Positions 2,867 to 27,636 are shown, counted from the first letter of the stretch. The stretch: DNA of 64,000 nt from Thermoanaerobaculia bacterium (GCA_033762835.1 JANRLG010000305.1:23508-87507), one strand, 5' to 3'. Translations and numbers: made by a program. Notes: a model not told the origin generated them from the letters alone.

Positions 2867-3058
2867 CTACGCGGCTTCGTTTACTGGGCGACTGGGCAGG
2901 TTCTTGACGACAACCCGGCCCGAAACGGCCTGGCGGGACTGGAGCTGTCGGCAAAACTCCTCGATATCGAACCCGGCAGCCTCGAACAGCGTCTCGCGAA
3001 CCTGCCGAACCTCAGCAACGATCGGATCTTCCCAGGGCTTCTCGGGAGTGTCATTCAT
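2867..3058 (-). CDS. small protein translationally coupled downstream of a PIN gene (possible cognate partner)
   Basis: Starts 'MNDTPEKPWEDPIVAEVRQVRETLFEAAGFDIEEF' (~63 aa). The ATG overlaps the PIN stop (ATGAATGA). The upstream part of ORF 2867..3235 looks non-coding. Confidence 0.35.
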   Translation of the reverse strand: MNDTPEKPWEDPIVAEVRQVRETLFEAAGFDIEEFCRQLQSRQAVSGRVVVKNLPSRPVNEAA

Positions 3059-3539
3059 CGTCGTCTTCCTCGCTGGCAAGCTCTTCCGGGGTGCATAGTA
3101 CCGGAGCCGAGGCACCGAGGTCTCGACAGATGCCCTCGATACGGGGCCGTAGGCGTGCATTGGCAATGTGCGAACAGTTCCAGGTGAGCAAGAAGTCCAT
3201 CCGGTGGTAGGCAGCCGCCGCGATGTGAACTGCATCGGCGCCCGCCTTCGGTGGCAGGGGGACTCGAGCCAGGAGCGCGGCCGCGAATCGGGCCACCTCC
3301 GGGTTGATCCCGAGCAAGGGTAGTTTCGCGACGAGAGCCAAGCGCCGCGCCGCGGCCTCTGGGTCGCCGGCTGCGGCTTCGTCGAGTACGACTTGAGAGA
3401 GAAAGATCTCGAAGTGTCGGTCAGCGGTTCGCCACCACTGATGGGTGATCCTCTGGTGGGCGGCGGTCACCAGATCGCCGCTCGGGTGCGCGGCCAGGTA
3501 GCTGACGATGCTGGTTTCGAGATAGACCCGGGGGCGCAT
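3051..3539 (-). CDS. PIN-domain protein (VapC-like)
   Basis: 162 aa. N-terminal 'MRPRVYLETSIVSYL' typical of PIN nucleases. Acidic C-terminus. Confidence 0.55.
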   Translation of the reverse strand: MRPRVYLETSIVSYLAAHPSGDLVTAAHQRITHQWWRTADRHFEIFLSQVVLDEAAAGDPEAAARRLALVAKLPLLGINPEVARFAAALLARVPLPPKAGADAVHIAAAAYHRMDFLLTWNCSHIANARLRPRIEGICRDLGASAPVLCTPEELASEEDDDE

Positions 3540-3601: not shown

Positions 3602-4300
3602 GTGACTCCCCAACGTTTCCCCGGCAATGGCTGGATCGTCCTCGTCGGTGGTGGCGAGTTCAGTTTCGAGGAGACGCTCGATGCCGATGCCGCTTGGGTG
3701 GAGAAGCTGCCCCCCGGGCCGGTGGGCTTCTTACCCGCGGCTTCGGGGTCCATGGACTACGGCGAGCACTTTGCGAACTACTTCCATGAAGTCTTCGGGC
3801 GCGAAGTCGTCACTTTGCCGATCTACCGCGGACGGGATGCGCGGCGGGGCAAAAACGCCGAGCGCATCGCCGAGTGTTCGGCGGTGTATTTGGGCGGCGG
3901 CGTGACGGATCACCTGCTCGAGGCGCTCGCCCCGGGCACCCCGGTACTCGCCGCGCTCGAGGCCAAACTCGCGGCGGGGGGCATCGTCGTCGCCATCGCG
4001 GCGGCGGTCTCGGCCCTTGGCCAGGTGGCGCGCAGCATCCGGATCGGCGAGACCGTGCCCGGTGTCGGCTGGTTGCCGGGGGGAGTCCTCGAGACCAATT
4101 TCGTGACCGAACACGACCGCCGGCTGCGCAAGCTGCTGACCACTCCCGGTGTCGACTGGGGGCTCGGCATCCCGACCGGGGACGCCGTGTTGCTCGGCCC
4201 CGACGGGGTGGTGGAATACGTCGGCGAGGTCTACGGCCTCGCCTCACCGGACGGCCCACTCGAGCCCCTCGGCGAGCCGCTGGAAGACGAACCGCTCTGA
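3602..4300 (+). CDS. peptidase S51 / cyanophycinase-like (class I glutamine amidotransferase-like fold)
   Basis: 232 aa. 'WIVLVGGGEF', 'AVYLGGGVTDHLL' and 'AAAVSALG' patterns. Confidence 0.5.
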   Translation: MTPQRFPGNGWIVLVGGGEFSFEETLDADAAWVEKLPPGPVGFLPAASGSMDYGEHFANYFHEVFGREVVTLPIYRGRDARRGKNAERIAECSAVYLGGGVTDHLLEALAPGTPVLAALEAKLAAGGIVVAIAAAVSALGQVARSIRIGETVPGVGWLPGGVLETNFVTEHDRRLRKLLTTPGVDWGLGIPTGDAVLLGPDGVVEYVGEVYGLASPDGPLEPLGEPLEDEPL

Positions 4301-5283: not shown

Positions 5284-5339
5284 GCGGAGACTCCTAAGGG
5301 TCGGATGAGTTGGGGGTTTGAGCGGCAAGAGGGAGCAAG

Positions 5340-5852
5340 CTACCGTCGCCGTTCCCAGATCAGATGCGGCAGCTCGGGGACCAGGAGCTTCTCGAGCCCC
5401 AGTTGGACGGCGGCCAGGGAGCCGGGGAGGGCGAAGAGCAGGGTCTCGCCGGCCAGGCCCCCGGTGGCGCGGGAGAGGAGAGCGGCGGAGCCCACCTGGT
5501 CCCAGGACAAGAAGCGAAAAAGCTCGCCGAAGCCGGGGAGCGGCTTCGAGAGCAGGCGTTCGACGATCTCGATCGTGGTGTCCCGGGAGCTGATGCCGGT
5601 GCCGCCGGTCGAGACGATGACGTCGAGATCGCCGCCGGCCAGCCACGCACGCAACTGCCGGTCGATGTCCGCGGGTTCGTCGCGCACGATGGCGCGGGCG
5701 ACGAGCTGGTGCCCTGCCGTCGTGAGGGCCGTGACGATGGCCGCGCCGCCGGTGTCGGTCTCGAGTGTACGGGTGTCGCTTACGGTCACCACGGCGAAGC
5801 GGGCGGACTGGCCCGCCGCGGCGGCGCGGTGGGCGGCAGTGGACTCGCTCAC
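5340..5852 (-). CDS. moaB: molybdenum cofactor biosynthesis protein B (MoaB/MogA family)
   Basis: 'FAVVTVSDTRT...DLDVIVSTGGTG' motifs. GTG start overlaps the stop of the upstream secreted-protein gene (GTGA). Confidence 0.8.
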   Translation of the reverse strand: MSESTAAHRAAAAGQSARFAVVTVSDTRTLETDTGGAAIVTALTTAGHQLVARAIVRDEPADIDRQLRAWLAGGDLDVIVSTGGTGISSRDTTIEIVERLLSKPLPGFGELFRFLSWDQVGSAALLSRATGGLAGETLLFALPGSLAAVQLGLEKLLVPELPHLIWERRR

Positions 5853-7768
5853 GGCCGGCGCCCCTTCTTGAGTGGCCGGCTCTCGATCGTCACCGTCACC
5901 ACGCTTGGGGGCAGCGCGCCCGAGAGCAAAACGGCCTTGCCGGTTTCCGGCACTTTGGCCTCGACCGGCAGAGGGCCGAGGAAGTTCGATTGCTGGCCGC
6001 TTTCGTTGCCCCCGACGTTGATGCGGTCGAGCTGAACTCCTGGGACATTCTGGAGAATCACCCACGGATCGCGGACGGTGGGAATCTCCTCGAGTTCGAC
6101 CTGCGAGACGGTCGAGCCGGTCCGGATCTTTCGCTCGCCGAGGAGCGGCTCTTCGCGTCCCATTGGAGCCGGAGGCGGTGGCGGTGGGGGCGGTGGCACG
6201 GCGCGTAACTCGCCGTCGACCAGCCGGTAGTCGCGGTTCTCCGGCAGCATCAGGCGCCATTCGTGGCGGAGCACCGAACCCCGGATCATCGGCAGTTGGA
6301 GCCGCAGGTTCTCCTTGGATTTGCCCGCGGGCAAAACCCGCTTTTCGGCGGAGACGATTTCGACCCGGTGGCGTTGGCCGCGGCCCGGAGGCAACGGAAA
6401 GCGCAACACGCCGTTCGCTTCGATGGGCCGGACGGCGGCGCCGCTCACCTGGGCGGACCAGAATTCGACGCCCGGAGGCAGTTCGACTTCGAGGGCCGGA
6501 GGGCCGGACTCGACTACGATTTCGTCCCGGTGGACGAGCGATCCCTCGACCGTGGCGACGGTCACGGTGGTGCGCGCGGGCAGCAAGCCGGTGGCCAGGG
6601 GGACCGCGGGCAGGGCCTCGATCCCGAGCGCGAGACCGCTCGGGGGGACGCCGGGTGCGAGCCGCCAGACGGCCGCCAGAGCGAGCCCTTCGACGGCCTC
6701 GCGCAACGCGGGCGGCAAGTCCTCGCGGTCCACCCGGGACCAGGCGCCGGCGGGTTGCGGCTGCCACTCGGCGGCCAGGGTCGCCGTGACCACCAAGAAC
6801 CGCGACCGCACCTCCACCTCGGGCTCGAGTACGGGCAGGGCCAAGGCGGTGCCGCCCGTGGGCCACGGCGTGCGCGATGCGAGGACGAGGTGGCCGCGGC
6901 CGGCGAGGCGGTTTTGCCGGGTTACGACCAGCCGCTCGCCGTCGAGTTCGAAGCCGGAGCTGCCTTCGTCGGTGGTCACTGTCGGGTCCGGCTCGAAGCC
7001 GGCAGGCAGGCGCAAGGCGAGCTCCGCGAGGAAGCCCCGCTGGACGTCGTAGAGCACCACGTCCGTGCGTTCGAGCTGGTCCGGTCCGGGGGCGATCAAC
7101 GTCACCGCCACGCCGCGCACATAGGCGGAGGAGGGCTCGATGGCTGCTACCCGTCCGCGGACCTCGAGCTCGGCCTGGCTACCGGTCCGGCGCGTCAAGC
7201 GCACCGTGCGCCGTTCGCCGCGGAGCTCGTCACCCGCCAAGTAGCTGCCCGGCAGGCTCCAATCGAGGCCGGCCGGAAGCTCGAGGGTGAGCTCGACGAC
7301 CGACCCTTGGGCCACCGGCAGGGGCAGTCGACTGCTGCCGCCGGATTCGCCGGCAAGCCTTGCGACGCCCTCGGCGCGCACGGTGACCCGGCCGGGTCGC
7401 AGGGGCGTCACCTGGAGCGTGCCGGCCTCGTCCCGCCCCACGGTGGCGGCCTCCGGGGGCGTGACCGTGAGCCGATCCGGGACGGCGGCCGCATCGAGCG
7501 CGAGGGACGGCGGCCGTGGGCCCGAGAAGTCGAGGTCCCACTCTGCTTCGACGCGTACCGAGTCGCCTTCGAAGCGCAGGGTCAGGCGTTCGGCGAACAC
7601 CCGGGAGTCGGCGACGGGAGGCTGCGGGAGGGGTCTTTGGGCGCGCTCGACGAGTTCGTGGTACTGGCCGAGGGGCAATTCGACCCAGCCGGCAGTCGGC
7701 GGGGACGGCGGCGGAGCGGCACTCAAGGTTGCCGCCAGGCCGGCGGCGATCCAGGACAGTGGGGTCAT
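5849..7768 (-). CDS. large secreted protein A: beta-rich N-terminus, poly-Pro linker, TonB-plug-like C-terminal segment
   Basis: Signal peptide 'MTPLSWIAAGLAATLSAAP'. Run 'PPPPPPPPPPAP'. C-terminus 'VILQNVPGVQLDRINVGGNESGQQSNF' resembles the start of a TonB-dependent receptor plug. ATG overlaps the stop of gene B (ATGA). Confidence 0.55.
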   Translation of the reverse strand: MTPLSWIAAGLAATLSAAPPPSPPTAGWVELPLGQYHELVERAQRPLPQPPVADSRVFAERLTLRFEGDSVRVEAEWDLDFSGPRPPSLALDAAAVPDRLTVTPPEAATVGRDEAGTLQVTPLRPGRVTVRAEGVARLAGESGGSSRLPLPVAQGSVVELTLELPAGLDWSLPGSYLAGDELRGERRTVRLTRRTGSQAELEVRGRVAAIEPSSAYVRGVAVTLIAPGPDQLERTDVVLYDVQRGFLAELALRLPAGFEPDPTVTTDEGSSGFELDGERLVVTRQNRLAGRGHLVLASRTPWPTGGTALALPVLEPEVEVRSRFLVVTATLAAEWQPQPAGAWSRVDREDLPPALREAVEGLALAAVWRLAPGVPPSGLALGIEALPAVPLATGLLPARTTVTVATVEGSLVHRDEIVVESGPPALEVELPPGVEFWSAQVSGAAVRPIEANGVLRFPLPPGRGQRHRVEIVSAEKRVLPAGKSKENLRLQLPMIRGSVLRHEWRLMLPENRDYRLVDGELRAVPPPPPPPPPAPMGREEPLLGERKIRTGSTVSQVELEEIPTVRDPWVILQNVPGVQLDRINVGGNESGQQSNFLGPLPVEAKVPETGKAVLLSGALPPSVVTVTIESRPLKKGRRP

Positions 7769-9540
7769 GGCCGGGCCTCCGGGACCCGCCGGACGTTCAA
7801 GACGAGCGGCGAGGGCGTGGTGTCGAGGCTGCTCCATGAGGCGGTGAGCACTTGAAACCCCGAGGGCAGCGGCTGCCAGTCGACGCCACCCGCGGGCCGT
7901 GTCCCCTTGCGCCCCACACCCGAGTGCAGCTGCTGGTTGAGGGCGCTCGCGCCGGCCTCTTCGAGCACCGGCCGGGGCGGCTGGCCGACGTTGCCGCGGC
8001 GGCTCGGGTCCACCCACTCGTAGCGGAAGGGCGCCGGCAAGCTGGCTCGCACCTCGACGGTCGAGATCGGGCTCGAGGTGTGGGGAATCGGGATCTCGAG
8101 CCGGCCGCCGTCCGTTGCCGGCCAGGGCAAGACCACCTCGGCCGACCAGAAGAGCACTTGTTCCGAGTCGCGGCTGACCAGCGGCGAAACCCAAGCGCCG
8201 CCGCGTTGGCCGAGCCGGGCCGGGGTGCCGTCGCGCCGGCTGTCGACGAGCCGTGCTCCGGTGGGCAGTGCCAGGGCAAGGTCCGGTGCCCCGTTGGCCC
8301 GCACGACCGCCCAGATCTGGTAGAACGCCCGGCCGTGTTCACCGACCAGCACGTCGACCAATAGGCGATCGACCTGGGCACCGAGAACCCGGACTTCCGC
8401 CGGCCAGGTCACCCTCCAACGGGGAGTGGAGGCCCCCGCGGGGCCGATCAGCGGCTCCCCGAGACGCGCCTGGAAGGGTGCCGGCAGGGTCTCGACCTCG
8501 TGGGCCTCGGCAGTCCGAGCCGTGATCTCCCCGGCGGGCTCGAGAATGCCGCCGCCGCGCGCCTCGGCTTTGGTCACCACGGTGGCGCGCCGCGCCCCCG
8601 TGGGCACGAGCACCGGTACGCTCGACTCCGTGGCGGCGTCGGCCGCGAGCGAGGCGTGGAGCAGCCAGCGGTTGGGCGCCGGCCCGAGGAAGTCCACTTC
8701 GAGGGTGCCCTTGGCCACTTGCCAACCGACGGCGCCGAGGCCCTCGAGGCCCTCCACGGAGACCACTTCGAAGCCCTCGGGCGCGGGGATGGTCAAGGAC
8801 TCGAGCCGTCCTTCGACGACCTGCCCCGCGATCCAGGCCTCGGCCTGGCGCCGCGTCCGTTGCAGTACCAGCGCGGTCGCTGTGGTGACCTCGAAGCGCA
8901 GGGGCCTTTCTGCGATCACGGCGGCCGGCGCGCCTGCCAGGGTCAGCCAGGCGGTACCGCCGGGGCGGCCAGTGAAGCGCCACTGCCGGGGGCCGACCCG
9001 CTCGATCCGGAGATCGTCGGTGGCGGTCACCTCTTCGTCCGTCTCCAGGGTCCCGCCCACCCGGGCGGCGGCGGGCAGCGGCAAAGAGAAGGAACCCGTC
9101 GGCCGGGTCGCGGTCACCGTCCGGGTGATGCTCTGGGTCGATTCGAGCTCCAGACGATGGCGTCCCGGTTTGCCGCGCAGCTCGAGCCGCCGGGTTTCGC
9201 CTTCGCCGATCAGCCGGATCTCGCAGGTCGCAGCGCGGGCCGCGAGCAGCGGCAGCTCCGCGGACCACGGCAGGGATTGCCAGTCGTCGCGGTGCAGCCA
9301 AACAGTGGCGCTAGCGGTAATCCGCGCGTGACCCGCGGCGACCACCACGGCGAAGTCCAGCGACTCGAAGCTCACCCCGGTGTCCGGCAGAGCCGGCTGG
9401 GCGATCACCGGAGAGCCCTGGGCACGCAGCCGGTCGTAGACGTCGAGGGGGACGGTCACGGTCTGGGCAACGAGGGCGGGGCCCGCCAGCCCAGTGACGA
9501 GGAGCCCCCCGAGGAGGCGGCGGATGGCTGTTCGATTCAT
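7765..9540 (-). CDS. large secreted protein B (paralogue of A)
   Basis: Signal peptide 'MNRTAIRRLLGGLLVTGLAGPALVAQ'. Mature N-terminus 'TVTVPLDVYDRLRAQ' parallels A's 'WVELPLGQYHELVERAQ'. Earlier part of ORF 7765..9798 is Ser/Thr-rich, probably not translated. Confidence 0.55.
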   Translation of the reverse strand: MNRTAIRRLLGGLLVTGLAGPALVAQTVTVPLDVYDRLRAQGSPVIAQPALPDTGVSFESLDFAVVVAAGHARITASATVWLHRDDWQSLPWSAELPLLAARAATCEIRLIGEGETRRLELRGKPGRHRLELESTQSITRTVTATRPTGSFSLPLPAAARVGGTLETDEEVTATDDLRIERVGPRQWRFTGRPGGTAWLTLAGAPAAVIAERPLRFEVTTATALVLQRTRRQAEAWIAGQVVEGRLESLTIPAPEGFEVVSVEGLEGLGAVGWQVAKGTLEVDFLGPAPNRWLLHASLAADAATESSVPVLVPTGARRATVVTKAEARGGGILEPAGEITARTAEAHEVETLPAPFQARLGEPLIGPAGASTPRWRVTWPAEVRVLGAQVDRLLVDVLVGEHGRAFYQIWAVVRANGAPDLALALPTGARLVDSRRDGTPARLGQRGGAWVSPLVSRDSEQVLFWSAEVVLPWPATDGGRLEIPIPHTSSPISTVEVRASLPAPFRYEWVDPSRRGNVGQPPRPVLEEAGASALNQQLHSGVGRKGTRPAGGVDWQPLPSGFQVLTASWSSLDTTPSPLVLNVRRVPEARP

Positions 9541-9544
9541 GGAA

Positions 9545-9943
9545 TCACTGTATCGCGAGGACGGCCTCGAGATCGGTTTGCGAGAAGTCGCGACCTTTGA
9601 AGAGGATGGGTTCTGCGAGGTCTTTCGCCAAGGCGTAGGCGAAGCAGTCTCCGAAGTTGAGCCCGGCCGGGTGCCGGCCTTTGCCGTACTGGCTGAAGGC
9701 GCGCCGTGCCAGTTCGACCTGAGGAAGGTCGACGGCGACTCGCTCGATCCCCGCGATCGCGAGAAAGTGGTCGAGGTCGCGGAGGCCTTCGGCGCCATAC
9801 CGCGTCTCGATGACGATCGAAGTTTCCAGCAAGTTGGCGACCGAAAGTCGTCGAGCCGCGGCCTGCTCGATCGCTTCGTTGAACGCTCGCCGTTCGGGTT
9901 CGTCCAACAGAATCGCCAGTAGAGCGGAGGAATCGATCACCAC
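9545..9943 (-). CDS. vapC: PIN-domain VapC toxin
   Basis: 132 aa starting 'MVIDSSALLAILLDEPE', ending '...LFKGRDF'. Stop lies 4 nt from the start of gene B. Confidence 0.8.
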   Translation of the reverse strand: MVIDSSALLAILLDEPERRAFNEAIEQAAARRLSVANLLETSIVIETRYGAEGLRDLDHFLAIAGIERVAVDLPQVELARRAFSQYGKGRHPAGLNFGDCFAYALAKDLAEPILFKGRDFSQTDLEAVLAIQ

Positions 9944-10197
9944 GAGCGGGGTACTCCGTTCTCGTCATAACCGAGGATCTCGGCCGCGGAGCGCGGGTCT
10001 CGCACCGGCAACCGAGAACAGTGCAGAGCGACCTCGTCCAGTTGGTCCGCCAGGGAGCGTCGAGGAGCGGCTTGCCGGACCGCGGCGAGGCGTTCGCTGA
10101 GAGCACGAGTGACGGCGCCGGTCTTGGTCTCGCCGGTCAAGAGGGCTAGCTCCTCCGCGAGCTTCTCCGTGTCGTGGTTGCGGATGTTGAGTGCCAT
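9937..10197 (-). CDS. vapB: VapB/FitA-like antitoxin
   Basis: 86 aa from 'MALNIRNHDTEKLAEELALLTGETKTGAVTRAL'. Overlaps the vapC start. Confidence 0.7.
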   Translation of the reverse strand: MALNIRNHDTEKLAEELALLTGETKTGAVTRALSERLAAVRQAAPRRSLADQLDEVALHCSRLPVRDPRSAAEILGYDENGVPRSW

Positions 10198-11463: not shown

Positions 11464-13971
11464 ATGGCGGGAACTGGGTGGGTGTTTCAGGGTTCGACGA
11501 CGATCGTCTTCGGCCTCGGCCTTGCTCTGGGGGCCGCGGCAGGGGCACAGCCCGCGGTGTGCATCGACGGCAATCAAGGGGCCAGCGCGCCGCCCGCGGC
11601 CTTGTGGGGCGAGCTCCAGCCCGGCGTACCCGGTCGCCTGCCGGCGTCTCGGGACTCCACGAACTACACCGGGCAGCAGTTGCCCGACGCGCTCTACCCG
11701 AACTTCTCCTCTTTGGACCTCGAAAATGGCTGGGTGTTCGTGAGCTACTCGCTGGGAGTCCAGATCTGGGACGCCCGTGGGGTGCGCGAGGCCGATCCTG
11801 TCCTCATGGCCGAGCGCGACGCCAAACGGTGCGGCGACTTTCTGGAACCGCCCTTCACCTGCGGGCGCGACGGCACCGGCGAGGCTCGTTGGTCGGTGTG
11901 GGACATCGATGCGCCGGAAGGCAAGGACGACGTCGTGGCGGCCTTCGGTCGGGCGCCCCTGGGCGTCACGATCTGGAACAGCGCCCAGAAGTCCAATCTC
12001 GAGCCGAAGTATCAGGACACCGCGGCCAACTTCTACGCCGGCTGGGCGGTCACGATCGGCGGGCGCGACTACGCCTTCGCCGCCGCGGACGGCACCAACG
12101 GGCTCGACGGCCTCGTGGTCTACGACCTGACGACGGCCAAGAACCTGGTCACGCCGTGCCTCGAAAACTCGGCGGTGACCACGGCTTGTGGGGTCCGGCG
12201 GAACCGGTTCGCCCCCGGCGCTCCAGCCTTCTACGTCGATGGCTTTCGGCATGGGGACGGCCGGACCTTCCTGGTCCACTCCGGCCGGGTCTCGGCCCGT
12301 GGCCTCGAGTTGTGGGACGTTTCGGACCCGGCAGCACCGACCAACCTGCGGGCGGGCGGAGGTCGTTTCCTGGCGAGCCGGATCGTCCACGGGGTCGCGC
12401 TCTGGCAGGAAGGCTCGCGGAGCTTTCTCGCGGCCTGGTTCTTCGAGCCTAAGGCGAACGAGTACGCGGCCGAGCTGTTCGACCTCACCTCGTGCTTGAC
12501 ACCGGTCGGTTGCCGCGAGCTGCCCGCTCCGCTGGCCACCCTGCACCGTGTCGGCCCTGTCGCCGACGAGTACTTCGTCACCTTCTCGCGCGGCACGGGC
12601 GGCACGCCCTACCTCTACTTCGGGCATCAGGGCAAATGCCTGACCGGACGGCAAACGGAGTGGCTCTACGACGTTTCGCCCCTGGCGATCGGCGGCGCTC
12701 CCCACGAGATCACCCCGGACCAGACGATCACCGCGGTGACGGCGACCGAGGGGCCGACCCAGGTCGACTACTGGAGTTATGCCTACGCTCAGAATCCCGG
12801 CGGGTACAGCCAAGTCATGCCGCGGGTGGGCAAGTTTCAGGGCGACCTGTTCTATCGCGCCGCGTGGACGCTGTTCGACACCCACCGGCGGGTGGCCCCG
12901 CGGCTCGACATCGCAGGACCGGCCACGGCGAGCACCGGACAACACCGACGCTTCGTGGCCAGCGCGACCCACTGCCTGCCGGGAGCGACGGGCTGGACGT
13001 GGACCGCCACGGGCGGGGCGAGCGGCGGGGGTTCGGGACCGGAAGCCACGTTCGACTGGCCGGCCGCCGGGACGTTCACGGTCACCGCCCGCCACCCGGC
13101 GTGCTCCACCGGCCTGGGGAGCAAGTCGGTCACGGTAAAAGCTGCCGCCAGCGTGCCGCTGTTGGCCGAGTTCGCGGCCGAAGATTGCGGGGGTTCGCCG
13201 TGCACGGTTCCGGTCGGGACCGCGGTGGAGTTCACGGATTTCTCGGCCGGGATCGTCGCCTCGAGTTCGTTCGCCTACGACTGGAACCACACCGGCGCCA
13301 GCGAGGCGACCTGTCGGTTCGGCTTCGGCAGCACCGAGCCGGCTGCCGCCCACGTTTTCCTGACCGCGGGCGCCTGGACGCCGTGCCTGCGCGTCACTCG
13401 CGGGGCTGCCGAAAGCGACGACTTCGTCTCGGCGCCGATCATCGTCACCGGCGTCAGCCTGCCGTCGCTGGCCTTGAACGGACCGGGAGCCGCGCGGACG
13501 GGGCAAGCCGTAACGCTGACTGCCCTCGCCGAGGGCTGCGCTCCGGGTACCGCGGGTTGGGTCTGGACGGCGCCGGGGGCGGTGTTCGACGGTCCGGCGG
13601 ACCGCTCGAGCGTGCAACTGCGTTGGCCCACGGCCGGCAGCCGCGTCGTCGCCGTGGCGCATCCCCAGTGTCCGGGGGCGTTGGCCAGCCGGCCCGTCAC
13701 GGTCACTGGTTCTTCCTCCGCGGCACTCACGGCGGAGTTCCACTACCGGACGACCGCGCCGCTCACCCTGGCCTTCGAGGGCGCGCTGTCGACCGGTGCC
13801 GGTCGTTTCACTTGGACCTTCCCTGGCGGCGTCCGCAAGTCGGGCCCCTCGGTGCTGCATCGGTTCGCCACCGCGGGGACGTTCCCGGTCACCCTCGAAG
13901 TCCAAGCCGCTGATTGCGGGGCGCCGCCGTGCCCGCTGTCGACAGTGACGCGGAGCGTGCGGGTGGAGTGA
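11464..13971 (+). CDS. large secreted protein with LVIVD-like beta-propeller repeats and three PKD-like domains
   Basis: 835 aa. Shine-Dalgarno AGGAGG then signal peptide. 'GLDGLVVYDLTT' and 'RGLELWDVSDP' LVIVD-type repeats. Three C-terminal ~85-aa repeats with 'W.WT..G' and 'AG.F.VT' PKD-like motifs. Confidence 0.7.
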   Translation: MAGTGWVFQGSTTIVFGLGLALGAAAGAQPAVCIDGNQGASAPPAALWGELQPGVPGRLPASRDSTNYTGQQLPDALYPNFSSLDLENGWVFVSYSLGVQIWDARGVREADPVLMAERDAKRCGDFLEPPFTCGRDGTGEARWSVWDIDAPEGKDDVVAAFGRAPLGVTIWNSAQKSNLEPKYQDTAANFYAGWAVTIGGRDYAFAAADGTNGLDGLVVYDLTTAKNLVTPCLENSAVTTACGVRRNRFAPGAPAFYVDGFRHGDGRTFLVHSGRVSARGLELWDVSDPAAPTNLRAGGGRFLASRIVHGVALWQEGSRSFLAAWFFEPKANEYAAELFDLTSCLTPVGCRELPAPLATLHRVGPVADEYFVTFSRGTGGTPYLYFGHQGKCLTGRQTEWLYDVSPLAIGGAPHEITPDQTITAVTATEGPTQVDYWSYAYAQNPGGYSQVMPRVGKFQGDLFYRAAWTLFDTHRRVAPRLDIAGPATASTGQHRRFVASATHCLPGATGWTWTATGGASGGGSGPEATFDWPAAGTFTVTARHPACSTGLGSKSVTVKAAASVPLLAEFAAEDCGGSPCTVPVGTAVEFTDFSAGIVASSSFAYDWNHTGASEATCRFGFGSTEPAAAHVFLTAGAWTPCLRVTRGAAESDDFVSAPIIVTGVSLPSLALNGPGAARTGQAVTLTALAEGCAPGTAGWVWTAPGAVFDGPADRSSVQLRWPTAGSRVVAVAHPQCPGALASRPVTVTGSSSAALTAEFHYRTTAPLTLAFEGALSTGAGRFTWTFPGGVRKSGPSVLHRFATAGTFPVTLEVQAADCGAPPCPLSTVTRSVRVE

Positions 13972-24435: not shown

Positions 24436-27405
24436 TCAGAACCGCAGGCCGAGCGCGACGCGGAAGGTCCGGGCACGCTGGAAGCCGTTCTGGTTGATGG
24501 CCTTGCCGAAGTTCGGTCCCTTGTCCCAGTGGACGCCTTCGACGGGCGTCTCGGTGAAGGGGTTGAACGCGCGGCACGGGCCGGGGCCACCCGAGGCGCT
24601 GGCGCGCGAGCAGGTGCCGCCGGTGTCCTGGCTGACCACCGACTGATCGAGGTAACGGGAATCCGTGGTGTCGAGGTCGTCGGCGTTGAACACGTTCAGC
24701 AGCTGCGGCTGGACGTACATCTCGATGTCCCGGAAGGTGAATCCATAGGTCACCGACAGGTCGGTGCGCAGGATGTCGTCGGTCCGGAACTCGTCACGAG
24801 CCGTGAAGTAGTAGGTCACGCGGGGCGGCGGAGTGCGGTAGCCCGGGTTGGTGACGAAGTTGAGGCTGCGCACGGTACCCACGGCGCCGTAGGGCACGCC
24901 GGAGTTGAAGCTCTGCACCAGGCTGGCGGTCAGCGAGTGCTGCTCGGTGTCGAAAATCTTGTAGACACCGTAGAGGCTGAGCTTGTGGCGCTGGTCGATG
25001 GCGAGGTCACCGTCCGGCTGGTTCCAGCGCGGATCGGCGTATTCGGGGTAGCTGTTGATGCCGCCGGTGAGCGGGCCGGAGTTCCGGTTCTCGCCGTCGA
25101 AGTTGCCCTGCGCCTGCGACAGGGTGTAGTTGCCGCCGAGGTCCAACCGGTCCGTGGCGCGGTACCGGAATTGGGACTGTAGGGCGTCGTACTCGCGGCT
25201 GTAATTCTGGTCGTCGTTCTCGACCAGGGTCAGATCGGCACGACCGCCGGTCGGGGTCGTGACCTGGCCGGTCGACAGGTCGGTGCGCGACGCGTAGAAG
25301 TCGTGCCACTCGCGGTGGACGAGGTCGGCGCGGACCACGCCACGGCTGCCGAGCTGCTTCGAGACGCCGACGGTGAACTCGTCGACGTACGGCGAATCGA
25401 GGCCGCCACGGATCTGGACGTTGCCGCCCGGAATGGACTGCGCGGTCAAGAAGGTGCGGTTGTCGGTGAAGCCGACGCTGCGGAACCAGTCGAACAGCTG
25501 CTGGAGCGCCTGATCCTGGGTCAGCAAGTTGGCGGCGTTGGGGTTCGAGTTGATCGACGGTCCCTGGTAGGCCCACTGGAAGGTGGCCGGGGCGCCGGCG
25601 GTGGTCGAGCTGTCACCCACGGTGTTGGCGAGAGCGGCGACGTAACGACCGTAGCTGCCGTTCAGCACCCAGTCGCCGGTACCCTTCGGGTCCCAGGTCA
25701 CGGCCACGCGGGGGCTGAAGTTCGAGTCGTCGGCGACCTTGTCGCCCGAGGCGTTCTTGCCGTCGTTCTGGTCATAACGGACGCCCAAGTTGAAGCTCAA
25801 GCGGTCGGTCATGCGCCAGGTGTCGTTCACGAAGATCGAGTTGGTGCGGAAGTTCGTGCCCTGGGTGGTCACGAAGATCGGGTTCCACTGGATGATCGTG
25901 GAGGTCGGAGCGAAGACCGGGAAGATCTCGGTGCCGCGAATGATCGCGCTCGTACCCAGGATGCGGAAGTCGCTGCCCGACTGGTGATTGTCGGAAGCGC
26001 GGATGTCGTTGAAGGTGTCGACGCCGACGACCAAGTCGTGGGTGCCGGTCTTCTCGGTCGACAGGAAGTAGTTGAGCTTGGCGAGGGCGTTTTCGTTGTT
26101 GCGCTCCTCGGGCAAGCAGACGCCGCAGAAGGTCGGCGAGTGGTACCGCGCGCCGTTGCGGGACCGGTCGATGAGCAGCGTGCCGCCAATCAGATCGGTG
26201 AACCGCGAGCCCGAGCCCACGAAGGTGAACTCACGCTCCGAGTACTGGGCGGTCACGAACAGGTTCGAGGACAGGATGCCGTTGTAGTTGAACGCCAGGA
26301 GCTGCTCCGGGGTCTCCCGGTTGTTGAGGCTCGCGGTGTCCATGATGGTGCCGAAGAAGTTGCCGGCCTCCTGATCGTCGAGGTCCATGAAGGAGCCGAC
26401 GAGGGAGTGCTTGGCCGTGGCCGCGAGGGTCAACTTGCCTTCGTAGCGGCGCTCTTCGCGTCCGGTAGCAAAGGAGATGTTGGTGAAGCGGGTGGAATCC
26501 GTCGAGTTGCTCTCGAAGTCACGGCCGGCGACGAAGAACCACAGCCGGTCGCGCAGCACCGGACCGCCGAGGGTGACCTCGTAGGTCGGCACGACGTCGT
26601 CGGTCTGAGCTTCGCCGAAGGGCGTCACGGACTGCCAGTCCTGGTTGTTGAGCGTGCCGCGGATGGAGCCCGAGAAGTTGTTGCCGCCGCTCTTGGTGAG
26701 CACGTTGACGACACCGCCCGAGAAGCGGCCATATTCCGCCGAGATCGACGCCGCGGAGGTGGTGGTCTCCTGGATGGCGTCCTCGATGAACAGGTCGTTC
26801 GGTTGGCCGCGCAGGTTCTCGTTGATGACGACGCCGTTGACCATGAACAGGTTCTCGAAGGACGGCGCACCGGAGATGGTCAGGCTGGACTGGCCGGTCT
26901 CGGTGTTCTTCGACGGACCGGTGGCGGCGACGCCGGGAGCCAGCTTGGCGATCTCGGAGATCGTGCGGCCGGCCGGAAGCTCGTCGATCAGCTCCTTCGA
27001 GTAGGTGGCGGCCACCTGGCTGGTCTGGGAGATGGTCTCGAGCGAGCCCGTGACCACGATCTCCTCGGTGATGGCGCTGATCGCCATCTCGACGTCGACG
27101 CGGGCGTCCTGGGCCGCGGCCACGCGCACCGTGCGCGCCACCGTCTCGAGGCCCTGGAGCTCGTAGACGACGCTGTACTCGCCGGGCGGCAAGTTCGGGA
27201 TCAGGTAGTCACCGTTGGCCGAGGTCACGGCCGTGCGGCTGCCCTGCAGGGCGGGCGACGTGGCGGTCACCATCACCCCGGGCAACACGCCCTCGGAGGA
27301 TGAAACGCGACCGGTCAAGGTGCCATTGGGAATCTGGGCCATGCCGGGGAGGGCCGCGAGCAGCCCTACCACCAGCACGAGGCCCGTAATCGTCTTCCAA
27401 CTCAT
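24436..27405 (-). CDS. TonB-dependent receptor (N-terminal carboxypeptidase-regulatory-like extension plus plug and barrel)
   Basis: Signal peptide 'MSWKTITGLVLVVGLLAALPGMA'. Plug motifs and a terminal aromatic '...RVALGLRF'. AAGGAG Shine-Dalgarno 8 nt upstream. Confidence 0.85.
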   Translation of the reverse strand: MSWKTITGLVLVVGLLAALPGMAQIPNGTLTGRVSSSEGVLPGVMVTATSPALQGSRTAVTSANGDYLIPNLPPGEYSVVYELQGLETVARTVRVAAAQDARVDVEMAISAITEEIVVTGSLETISQTSQVAATYSKELIDELPAGRTISEIAKLAPGVAATGPSKNTETGQSSLTISGAPSFENLFMVNGVVINENLRGQPNDLFIEDAIQETTTSAASISAEYGRFSGGVVNVLTKSGGNNFSGSIRGTLNNQDWQSVTPFGEAQTDDVVPTYEVTLGGPVLRDRLWFFVAGRDFESNSTDSTRFTNISFATGREERRYEGKLTLAATAKHSLVGSFMDLDDQEAGNFFGTIMDTASLNNRETPEQLLAFNYNGILSSNLFVTAQYSEREFTFVGSGSRFTDLIGGTLLIDRSRNGARYHSPTFCGVCLPEERNNENALAKLNYFLSTEKTGTHDLVVGVDTFNDIRASDNHQSGSDFRILGTSAIIRGTEIFPVFAPTSTIIQWNPIFVTTQGTNFRTNSIFVNDTWRMTDRLSFNLGVRYDQNDGKNASGDKVADDSNFSPRVAVTWDPKGTGDWVLNGSYGRYVAALANTVGDSSTTAGAPATFQWAYQGPSINSNPNAANLLTQDQALQQLFDWFRSVGFTDNRTFLTAQSIPGGNVQIRGGLDSPYVDEFTVGVSKQLGSRGVVRADLVHREWHDFYASRTDLSTGQVTTPTGGRADLTLVENDDQNYSREYDALQSQFRYRATDRLDLGGNYTLSQAQGNFDGENRNSGPLTGGINSYPEYADPRWNQPDGDLAIDQRHKLSLYGVYKIFDTEQHSLTASLVQSFNSGVPYGAVGTVRSLNFVTNPGYRTPPPRVTYYFTARDEFRTDDILRTDLSVTYGFTFRDIEMYVQPQLLNVFNADDLDTTDSRYLDQSVVSQDTGGTCSRASASGGPGPCRAFNPFTETPVEGVHWDKGPNFGKAINQNGFQRARTFRVALGLRF

Positions 27406-27636
27406 GAAGTGAGCTCCTTTCTGTCCGTCTCCGGCAGGGCAGCAGGCCCGGCGGGAGATGCCGACGAGGGAGAAAGTACCCCCGGCAGCGCGATGATTCG
27501 AGGCGGAGAACAGCAATGCTAGTGCCCACTCTCCCAGGTCGTCAATGAATCGTTACAAGAAATTGACAACACGAGGGTTGAGAGCGGCGTAACCGCCTTT
27601 TCGGCGGTGGCTGTTCAAAAAAATGGAGTGCCGAGT

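Follow-up and report, generated by a model that had tools for sequence, protein, structure and literature searches.

The window analysed here is a stretch of 64,000 nucleotides from a Thermoanaerobaculia bacterium (GCA_033762835.1 JANRLG010000305.1:23508-87507), and within its positions 5,340 to 10,197 five genes lie tightly packed on the minus strand in the order vapB, vapC, A, B and moaB. Proteins A and B, which are annotated as hypothetical proteins in the source metagenome-assembled genome (Thermoanaerobaculia, Acidobacteriota), are the subject of this work. They comprise 591 and 639 amino acids (aa), and the start codon of B overlaps the stop codon of A in the sequence ATGA, in agreement with an earlier note on this DNA that had described two signal-peptide-like proteins of about 600 aa arranged head-to-tail with such an overlap. 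The A-B pair is a self-contained, translationally coupled two-gene cassette of the Acidobacteriota, mainly of the class Thermoanaerobaculia: in each of the 11 loci examined, an A-type gene immediately precedes B, usually overlapping with it, and the other neighbours of the distant A-B loci are unrelated.

The function of TonB-dependent transporters is generally assumed to depend on the complete unit of plug and barrel. In the B family, a linker was found which was evidently assembled from the N-terminal periplasmic modules of Oar-type TonB-dependent transporters. In the lineage of the window, the CarboxypepD_reg domain and the TonB-box strand have given way to a proline spacer, and only a 61-residue plug start remains. 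Pieces from the transporter N-terminus (extension, TonB-box strand and plug start) would here be selected in barrel-less proteins, and this in a widespread, unannotated two-gene family of the Acidobacteriota. The features of both genes are listed in the following, with residues counted in the respective protein.

7765-9540, minus strand: protein A, first cassette gene, 591 aa; predicted exported beta-sandwich protein
9463-9540, minus strand: A signal peptide (about residues 1-26, ending ...ALVAQ before TVTVPL), read from sequence; position conserved in the A alignment
7996-9462, minus strand: A beta-sandwich body (about residues 27-515), homologous to the B body (hhalign); AlphaFold2 secondary structure
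7768-7995, minus strand: A disordered linker (516-560) and C-terminal beta-hairpin (561-591), AlphaFold2
5849-7768, minus strand: protein B, second cassette gene, 639 aa; paralogous body, transporter-derived linker and conserved tail
7715-7768, minus strand: B signal peptide, weak (residues 1-18), read from sequence
6197-7696, minus strand: B beta-sandwich body (about residues 25-524), hhalign and AlphaFold2
6164-6196, minus strand: proline spacer PPPPPPPPPAP (B 525-535), sequence
5975-6157, minus strand: plug-start fragment (B 538-598), hhalign to receptor plug regions
5852-5974, minus strand: B C-terminal tail (599-639), PLPV..(V/I)PE(T/S)GK...L.G.LPP..V.V..E...basic; AlphaFold2 beta-hairpin and conservation

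Linker and tail of protein B

The body of B is followed by a run of prolines, for which the earlier note had given twelve residues in a row. The run as such is present, its length had been overestimated: nine consecutive Pro codons (B 525-533, window 6170-6196) are followed by Ala-Pro, which makes 10 Pro in 11 residues. This spacer sits where longer homologues have a CarboxypepD_reg domain and a TonB-box-like strand. The spacers of the B orthologues are also Pro-rich, but different in sequence.

For the last 104 residues of B, no Pfam match was obtained even at E<=10, nor was there a PDB sequence match. This region contains the string VILQNVPGVQLDRINVGGNESGQQSNF at residues 570-596. A word-indexed search with the profile of a 52-aa fragment returned only fragments of open reading frames (ORFs) with 49-91 aa and no full receptors, which points to a selection of candidates that favours short proteins. 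By a pattern scan of genome contigs, in which each species was represented by one genome, at least 570 matches to the 52-aa motif were detected and confirmed by tblastn. The 80 best matches derive almost all from Thermoanaerobaculia or other Acidobacteriota and nearly all lie in receptors of about 1000 aa. In these loci there are 71 motif-bearing ORFs of about 960-1550 aa, most of them near 1000; in general, about 165 residues precede the motif and 790-890 (about 820) follow it. Two motif-bearing ORFs were scanned with Pfam. The one from locus L009 contains a CarboxypepD_reg domain (33-110), a Plug domain (137-228; 24.4 bits, cut-off 23.9) and an outer-membrane barrel domain, and its Plug match spans the segment homologous to the B fragment. 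The one from L033 has a CarboxypepD_reg domain and a Plug match of 23.7 bits, just below the cut-off, with no barrel model listed by Pfam.

Alignment of the six close B tails with the 71 receptor plug regions by hhalign resulted in a probability of 99.9% (E=2.8e-36, 75% identity over 63 columns), and the matched part of the receptors runs from the residues after the TonB box (ESPLLDER...) to ...GQQSNF.G. The B fragment is 81% identical to the receptor of L009, which belongs to a different species. By transitive homology, B 538-598 is the first half of an Oar-type receptor Plug domain. The earlier proposal that the C-terminus of B resembles the beginning of a receptor plug without a barrel is thereby substantiated, by a relationship which Pfam and PDB do not reveal directly. 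A complete Plug domain (PF07715) is not present in B, in which the 63 homologous columns cover no more than the first plug half. After the fragment, only 41 residues remain; they show no resemblance to the second plug half or to a barrel, and no barrel match (PF00593/PF25183) was obtained. The TonB-box strand (acidic-T-hydrophobic-hydrophobic-V-T-A/S) is lacking in the window's B, which reads PPPAPMGRE compared to EETITVTSE in the receptors, and a CarboxypepD_reg domain is absent from it as well.

The architecture of the motif-bearing receptors is that of the Oar subclass, which, as characterized for Myxococcus Oar (PMC6434023), combines a CarboxypepD_reg N-terminal extension, a Plug with TonB box and a 22-strand barrel. 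Within these Oar-type transporters, the fragment of the window's B is homologous to the plug segment that a receptor subfamily of the Thermoanaerobaculia carries after the TonB box, and longer B homologues share the CarboxypepD_reg domain and the TonB-box-like strand. In contrast to the transporters, B has neither a barrel nor a second plug half, and its transporter-like pieces are located C-terminal to an unrelated 500-aa body instead of at the N-terminus and occur in permuted order. The window's B additionally lacks the TonB-box strand and CarboxypepD_reg, and its fragment alone stays under the Pfam Plug threshold. A literature search revealed no stand-alone plug proteins. The sole receptor within the window is an Oar-type receptor with CarboxypepD_reg, Plug and barrel (24439-27552, minus strand), whose plug start (ELIDELPAGRTISEIAKLAPGV...) represents a subfamily different from that of the B fragment.

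Most B homologues have a length of 700-780 aa, and in 18 of 26 a CarboxypepD_reg domain was identified by Pfam between body and tail. Many long-form homologues possess a TonB-box-like strand, EDVITVTAESP, as it occurs in receptors, and plug pieces of the types RDPW..PGV..DRINVGGNESGQQS, DG..ITDM and YYDFDAFEE. Compared to real receptors the order of the modules is permuted, and it differs from member to member. The linker of L064B, for instance, consists of plug start, CarboxypepD_reg, TonB box and YYDFDAFEE before the tail begins; its plug start shares 96% identity with the receptors of other genomes, the adjacent CarboxypepD_reg/TonB-box part about 39%. In the solved receptors 9gbc and 8aa4, residues 21-157 align colinearly with the B-family profile, and the CarboxypepD_reg/receptor N-terminus accounts for the sole matches of this profile in the PDB. 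Of the best 150 representatives (50% identity clusters) retrieved with the B N-domain, 107 are proteins of 400-840 aa that contain it. A fusion of the N-domain to a full receptor or barrel does not occur among the best 150 profile matches, in which the long proteins are giants with CarboxypepD_reg repeats. Long ORFs of L026 and L028 had been considered as fusions and were rejected as spurious upstream extensions. L050 and L053 are not B-like, being VIT-vWA-receptor fusions. In these two loci the ORFs containing the match at 4001-4156 encode receptors of about 1500 aa, in the N-terminal parts of which (about 1-2100 in L050, about 1-2300 in L053), judged by eye, VIT and von Willebrand A-like sequence replaces CarboxypepD_reg and precedes ITVTSESPLLDER..., the TonB-box/plug region of the DRINVGGNESGQQS subfamily.

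Identity to the window-clade orthologues amounts to 62-65% for the body of B and 67-71% for the plug start. Within B, conservation is highest in the tail (85-90%), which was found throughout the family; its strands are predicted by AlphaFold2 at residues 611-617 and 623-632. Half a plug without a barrel might be taken for the accidental fusion remnant of a truncated receptor gene, for a pseudogene or for an assembly artefact. Such a decay is scarcely credible and is contradicted by conservation, as the same architecture with an intact frame recurs in six orthologues from independent samples and in many family clusters, and the part conserved best lies beyond the fragment.

In the window clade, the tail has a tripartite appearance (VPETG, KAVLLSGALPPSVVTVTI and ESRPLKKGRRP), which would permit its interpretation as a sortase or exosortase signal, i.e., (I/V/L)PE(T/S)GK, then a largely hydrophobic stretch of about 20 residues and an end rich in Lys/Arg, with the linker serving as a stalk. 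VIT-vWA proteins are classic proteobacterial sortase targets, and the fusion of VIT-vWA sequence to the same receptor type in L050 and L053 would fit this interpretation, just as the strong conservation of the tail would. However, in most family members the supposedly hydrophobic stretch contains charged residues and shows the alternation of an amphipathic strand (VGVELEVKGKR), a beta-hairpin is predicted by AlphaFold2, no LPXTG or PEP-CTERM model of NCBIfam matches at E<=1, and no sortase or exosortase gene is present in the neighbourhoods examined. A sorting signal is therefore highly improbable, and the sortase/PEP-CTERM reading of the tail was rejected on account of the charged stretch, the predicted hairpin and the missing NCBIfam match.

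More weight has to be given to the explanation that A and B are an envelope pair unrelated to TonB and that the receptor pieces are recombination products, kept only as a flexible or Ig-like spacer that separates the body from the C-terminal hairpin. The highly variable, permuted order and content of the pieces and the exchange of modules for a proline spacer in the window clade are consistent with it, as are the predicted disorder of the plug start and the plain linker of A at the same position; moreover, many receptor paralogues per genome are available for recombination. A passive spacer should drift, however. Instead, the plug start is 75-81% identical to receptors of other species, and in L064B the 96% identity of this segment stands next to neighbouring parts with about 39%. 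Among the orthologues of the clade, the conservation of the fragment equals or exceeds that of the folded body. At the DNA level, the identity between the fragment and the receptors sampled, all of them from other genomes, is 71-78%, with a third-position identity of about 0.6. These values give no sign of a recent transfer that would explain the likeness, and recent gene conversion or transfer from receptors was rejected accordingly, for a comparison that covers receptors of other genomes only. We consider a passive spacer rather unlikely. The plug-start segment is, as judged from these alignments, probably kept under constraint without a barrel or the remaining plug, which hints at, but does not prove, a role as a recognition element.

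Shared body of proteins A and B

The N-termini of both proteins resemble signal peptides and are followed by a common motif (TVTVPLDVYDRLRAQ in A, WVELPLGQYHELVERAQ in B). That of A displays the classical n-h-c pattern (MNRTAIRRLLGGLLVTGLAGPALVAQ, then T). That of B is hydrophobic without a basic n-region, and distant B homologues carry classical signal peptides. For the comparison of the bodies, family alignments of 10 A-type and 19 B-type sequences were built. In a direct BLASTP comparison, A and B are not significantly similar (E=0.25), yet the alignment of the A-family and B-family profiles with hhalign is highly significant (98.9% probability, E=1.9e-17) and extends over 458 colinear columns (A 23-514, B 25-523). 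Furthermore, the hidden Markov models of both families match each other's members reciprocally at 1e-8 to 1e-22. A and B are ancient, distant paralogues of one superfamily, as the earlier note had supposed from their similar N-termini. The similarity of A to B, the plug match of B and the domain matches of the neighbouring genes all reach strong E-values and are not due to chance.

There is no Pfam or NCBIfam family for A or B, and across 36 members no known family could be assigned to A, B or their N-domains. Searches of the PDB were likewise without a match, both with phmmer and with the profile of the A family. The AlphaFold2 models of the two proteins share one plan, although they are partly dependent on each other in that the alignment for the A model was padded with B-family sequences (pLDDT, the predicted local distance difference test, is 74.9 for B and 73.3 for A). 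A short helix past the signal peptide is followed by an all-beta body up to about residue 515-525, a disordered linker (A 518-560, B 531-603) and a C-terminal beta-hairpin (A 563-585, B 611-632). In A, residues 518-560 have a pLDDT below 50, and the strands 563-570 and 579-585 reach 70-84. The C-terminus of A carries the conserved motif P.GF..L.A.WS.L...P.PL in the family alignment. No homology between the C-terminal hairpins of A and B was detectable by hhalign, though both models end in a hairpin.

The body of about 490 aa is predicted to consist of multiple beta-sandwiches, one module of which has the fold of the N-domain of M1 aminopeptidases/LTA4 hydrolase and of ribophorin I (OST1). According to the models, this likeness concerns the fold only, with 5-19% identity. 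A and B contain neither HExxH(x18)E nor GxMEN, and the matching domain is non-catalytic in the M1 aminopeptidases. A peptidase function, which the M1-like fold had suggested, was rejected because the catalytic motifs HExxH and GxMEN are absent from both proteins. The beta-sandwich bodies most likely have a role in binding or scaffolding rather than in catalysis.

Possible role of the A-B pair

As an explanation of the cassette we tentatively propose that A and B form a hetero-complex, located either in the periplasm or on the inner side of the outer membrane, and that the transporter-mimicking linker of B couples this complex to the TonB/transporter machinery. In long-form B proteins, the coupling could be achieved by direct binding of TonB to the TonB-box strand. 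In the short form encoded in the window, it would proceed via some partner that recognises the conserved plug start as an extended, not as a pre-folded, peptide. Taken as a package, this proposal has in our estimation somewhat less than an even chance of being correct.

Several points weigh against it. The assembly of A with B as well as the link to TonB are inferred from sequence comparison, and the cellular location is deduced from signal peptides that were read from the sequence alone. The window's B has no TonB-box-like strand, and in the loci examined neither tonB, exbB and exbD nor a receptor gene recurs consistently next to the cassette. The plug-start segment is predicted to be disordered in B (pLDDT 30-45, AlphaFold2), and the wide variation of the transporter-derived pieces in order and presence would fit a passive, recombination-built spacer too. 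Finally, the plug-start segment is the best conserved part among the sampled receptors (78% versus 49-66% elsewhere), a figure that is biased by the selection of the loci for similarity to that same segment.

A conceptual precedent is given by the translocation domains of colicins and pyocins, barrel-less proteins with a TonB box in a disordered region, which are toxins entering from outside. Like them, long-form B is a soluble protein with a TonB-box-like strand within an unstructured stretch, and the resemblance is one of concept only. Unlike in colicins and pyocins, to which there is no sequence relationship, the segment of B appears to copy the N-terminus of the cell's own receptors and is preceded by a putative Sec signal peptide; the window's B furthermore has no TonB box. 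If the proposed coupling is carried further, A-B proteins might represent a new class of barrel-less TonB clients, in which TonB box and plug N-terminus were transplanted into the loop before the C-terminal hairpin, and in which pulling by TonB, driven by the proton motive force, would remodel a complex in the periplasm or associated with the outer membrane rather than open a transporter. We regard this as a long shot. The same applies to the accompanying idea, improbable at present, that the plug start is a previously unrecognised linear recognition element common to A-B proteins and hundreds of Thermoanaerobaculia receptors.

A further conceivable function is that of secretion cargo. B, possibly together with A, would cross the outer membrane via an Oar-type transporter, like PopC via Oar in Myxococcus, and the plug-like segment would be a targeting element that engages the cognate barrel. 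Oar-type transporters can mediate TonB-dependent protein secretion, as reported in PMC6434023, the fragment coincides precisely with the plug segment in one receptor subfamily, and no other outer-membrane targeting signal was recognisable in B by Pfam and NCBIfam. However, the neighbourhoods examined contain no receptor gene linked to the cassette, the sole receptor of the window belongs to a different plug subfamily, and the consulted text of PMC6434023 describes no plug-like signal in PopC. The idea is entirely speculative and in our view improbable.

Should the fragment by itself bind a partner, as the proposed coupling of the A-B complex presumes for the window's B, an undescribed recognition step in TonB-dependent transport or in transporter biogenesis would be indicated. 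It would also provide a handle on a large hypothetical envelope family of an abundant, poorly studied phylum of soil and sediment. If the linker is only a recombination-built spacer, it would still be a clear case of domains being shuffled between receptor genes and genes unrelated to them.

Cassette conservation and gene neighbourhood

The cassette of the window is flanked by a vapBC module and by moaB, both of which are ordinary in themselves. The gene map agrees with the earlier description of vapBC 4 nt upstream of the pair and of a GTGA overlap with moaB downstream.

9937-10197, minus strand: vapB antitoxin, Rv0623-like/PSK_trans_fac, 86 aa (Pfam PF07704, E=3.4e-24)
9545-9943, minus strand: vapC PIN-domain toxin, GTG start, 132 aa (Pfam PF01850, E=2.6e-15)
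5340-5852, minus strand: moaB, 170 aa, full-length MoCF_biosynth domain (PF00994, E=2.4e-29)

The stop codon of vapB and the start of vapC overlap by 4-7 nt in the order antitoxin, then toxin, and inspection of the VapC sequence revealed the acidic residues D4, E40, D99 and D119. Gene order, domains and acidic residues are those of a type II toxin-antitoxin module, to which a putative toxin activity can be ascribed. Compared to other VapBC modules nothing is unusual about this one, apart from its being parked upstream of A, the ATG of which lies 4 nt downstream of the vapC stop. The start codon of moaB overlaps the stop codon of B in the sequence GTGA. The product is a MoaB/MogA-like protein with a full-length MoCF_biosynth domain, matches TIGR02667 (moaB_proteo, NCBIfam) at E=1e-47 and, with 161.8 bits, remains below the equivalog cut-off of 222.4. 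A promoter scan yielded 0 promoters, and terminator-like sites occurred only at chance level.

The order A-B-moaB, with the same overlaps, was found in all clade relatives examined (L001, L002, L003, L089 and L090), which have identities of 62-86%, and it is ancestral within the clade of the window. In the distant cassettes of L004-L008, B is not followed by moaB. For moaB, both the position downstream of B and the overlap with it are specific to the clade, and no functional link to A-B is evident. L089 shares with the window the upstream genes for proteins of 110 aa and 224 aa and the downstream bcp, ndk and S51-like genes, and it has no vapBC. In L002 a response-regulator gene lies upstream and no vapB, and in L090 only an orphan vapB-like gene is present. 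At third codon positions, the GC content (GC3) of A, B and moaB amounts to 0.87, 0.85 and 0.91, respectively, compared to 0.77 for vapB and 0.75 for vapC; all 11 other genes checked range from 0.84 to 0.93, and vapBC alone deviates. The overall GC content across A-B (0.71-0.75) lies above that of the flanks because of the amino-acid composition. Owing to its variable presence and its outlying GC3, vapBC is therefore to be seen as the mobile, acquired element; it looks recently acquired and compositionally foreign, and the A-B pair and moaB look native.

The earlier note had remarked on an odd functional mix and proposed that the paralogue pair and the toxin-antitoxin genes had been inserted together into a housekeeping region by moaB. 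The mix is indeed odd and, in the case of vapBC (GC3 of 0.75-0.77), the only variable part, results from an addition. A joint insertion as an island could be supported by the raised GC content of A-B, the heterogeneous functions and the unrelated contexts of distant A-B cassettes. For the pair, this explanation is largely refuted by the synteny around moaB, as relatives down to about 62% identity share the gene order and the overlaps, the flanks are conserved in L089 without vapBC, and the GC3 of A and B equals that of their neighbours. Repeats, an integrase or a tRNA gene were not seen in a survey of ORFs and Pfam matches, beyond which no search was made. An island is very unlikely and, like secretion cargo, a sorting signal and a decayed receptor, less likely than both the proposed coupling of an A-B complex to the TonB machinery and the passive spacer.

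Antitoxin-like genes recur just upstream of A in unrelated lineages, namely in L006 (5716-5946, FitA-like ribbon-helix-helix), in L090 (387-641, orphan VapB-like) and in the window (9937-10197). This may be a coincidence in genomes rich in toxin-antitoxin genes, or a preferred landing site may be involved.

The cassette itself also varies in copy number. It is tandemly duplicated (A-B-A-B) in L008 (1681-10307), and the arrangement A-B-B' occurs in L005 (3935-9893) and L064 (549-6705). The additional B copies differ in linker content; in P0012, for example, DG..ITDM and YYDFDAFEE are the only plug pieces left. In L007 (6113-7998), the most distant locus, the A-type gene is represented by two ORFs of 379 and 254 aa that overlap, possibly owing to a frameshift or a sequencing error, and the B protein encoded downstream (P0025) has a variant tail, GVLPVRMDVPRAGTSHRF....

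Between moaB and bcp, only about 54 nt are found in the window (5286-5340); in L001 and L089 this space is occupied by one or two small ORFs (91 aa, 134 aa). A second PIN-domain ORF of 162 aa lies at 3051-3539 (minus strand) of the window, with a PF01850 match (E=1.6e-4) just under the Pfam cut-off. Beyond the gene for a 223-aa protein, a large, divergent ORF on the plus strand (11470-13971) carries a C-terminal PKD domain (E=6e-14). A similar PKD protein of 835 aa is encoded in L001, which makes this ORF part of the conserved neighbourhood.

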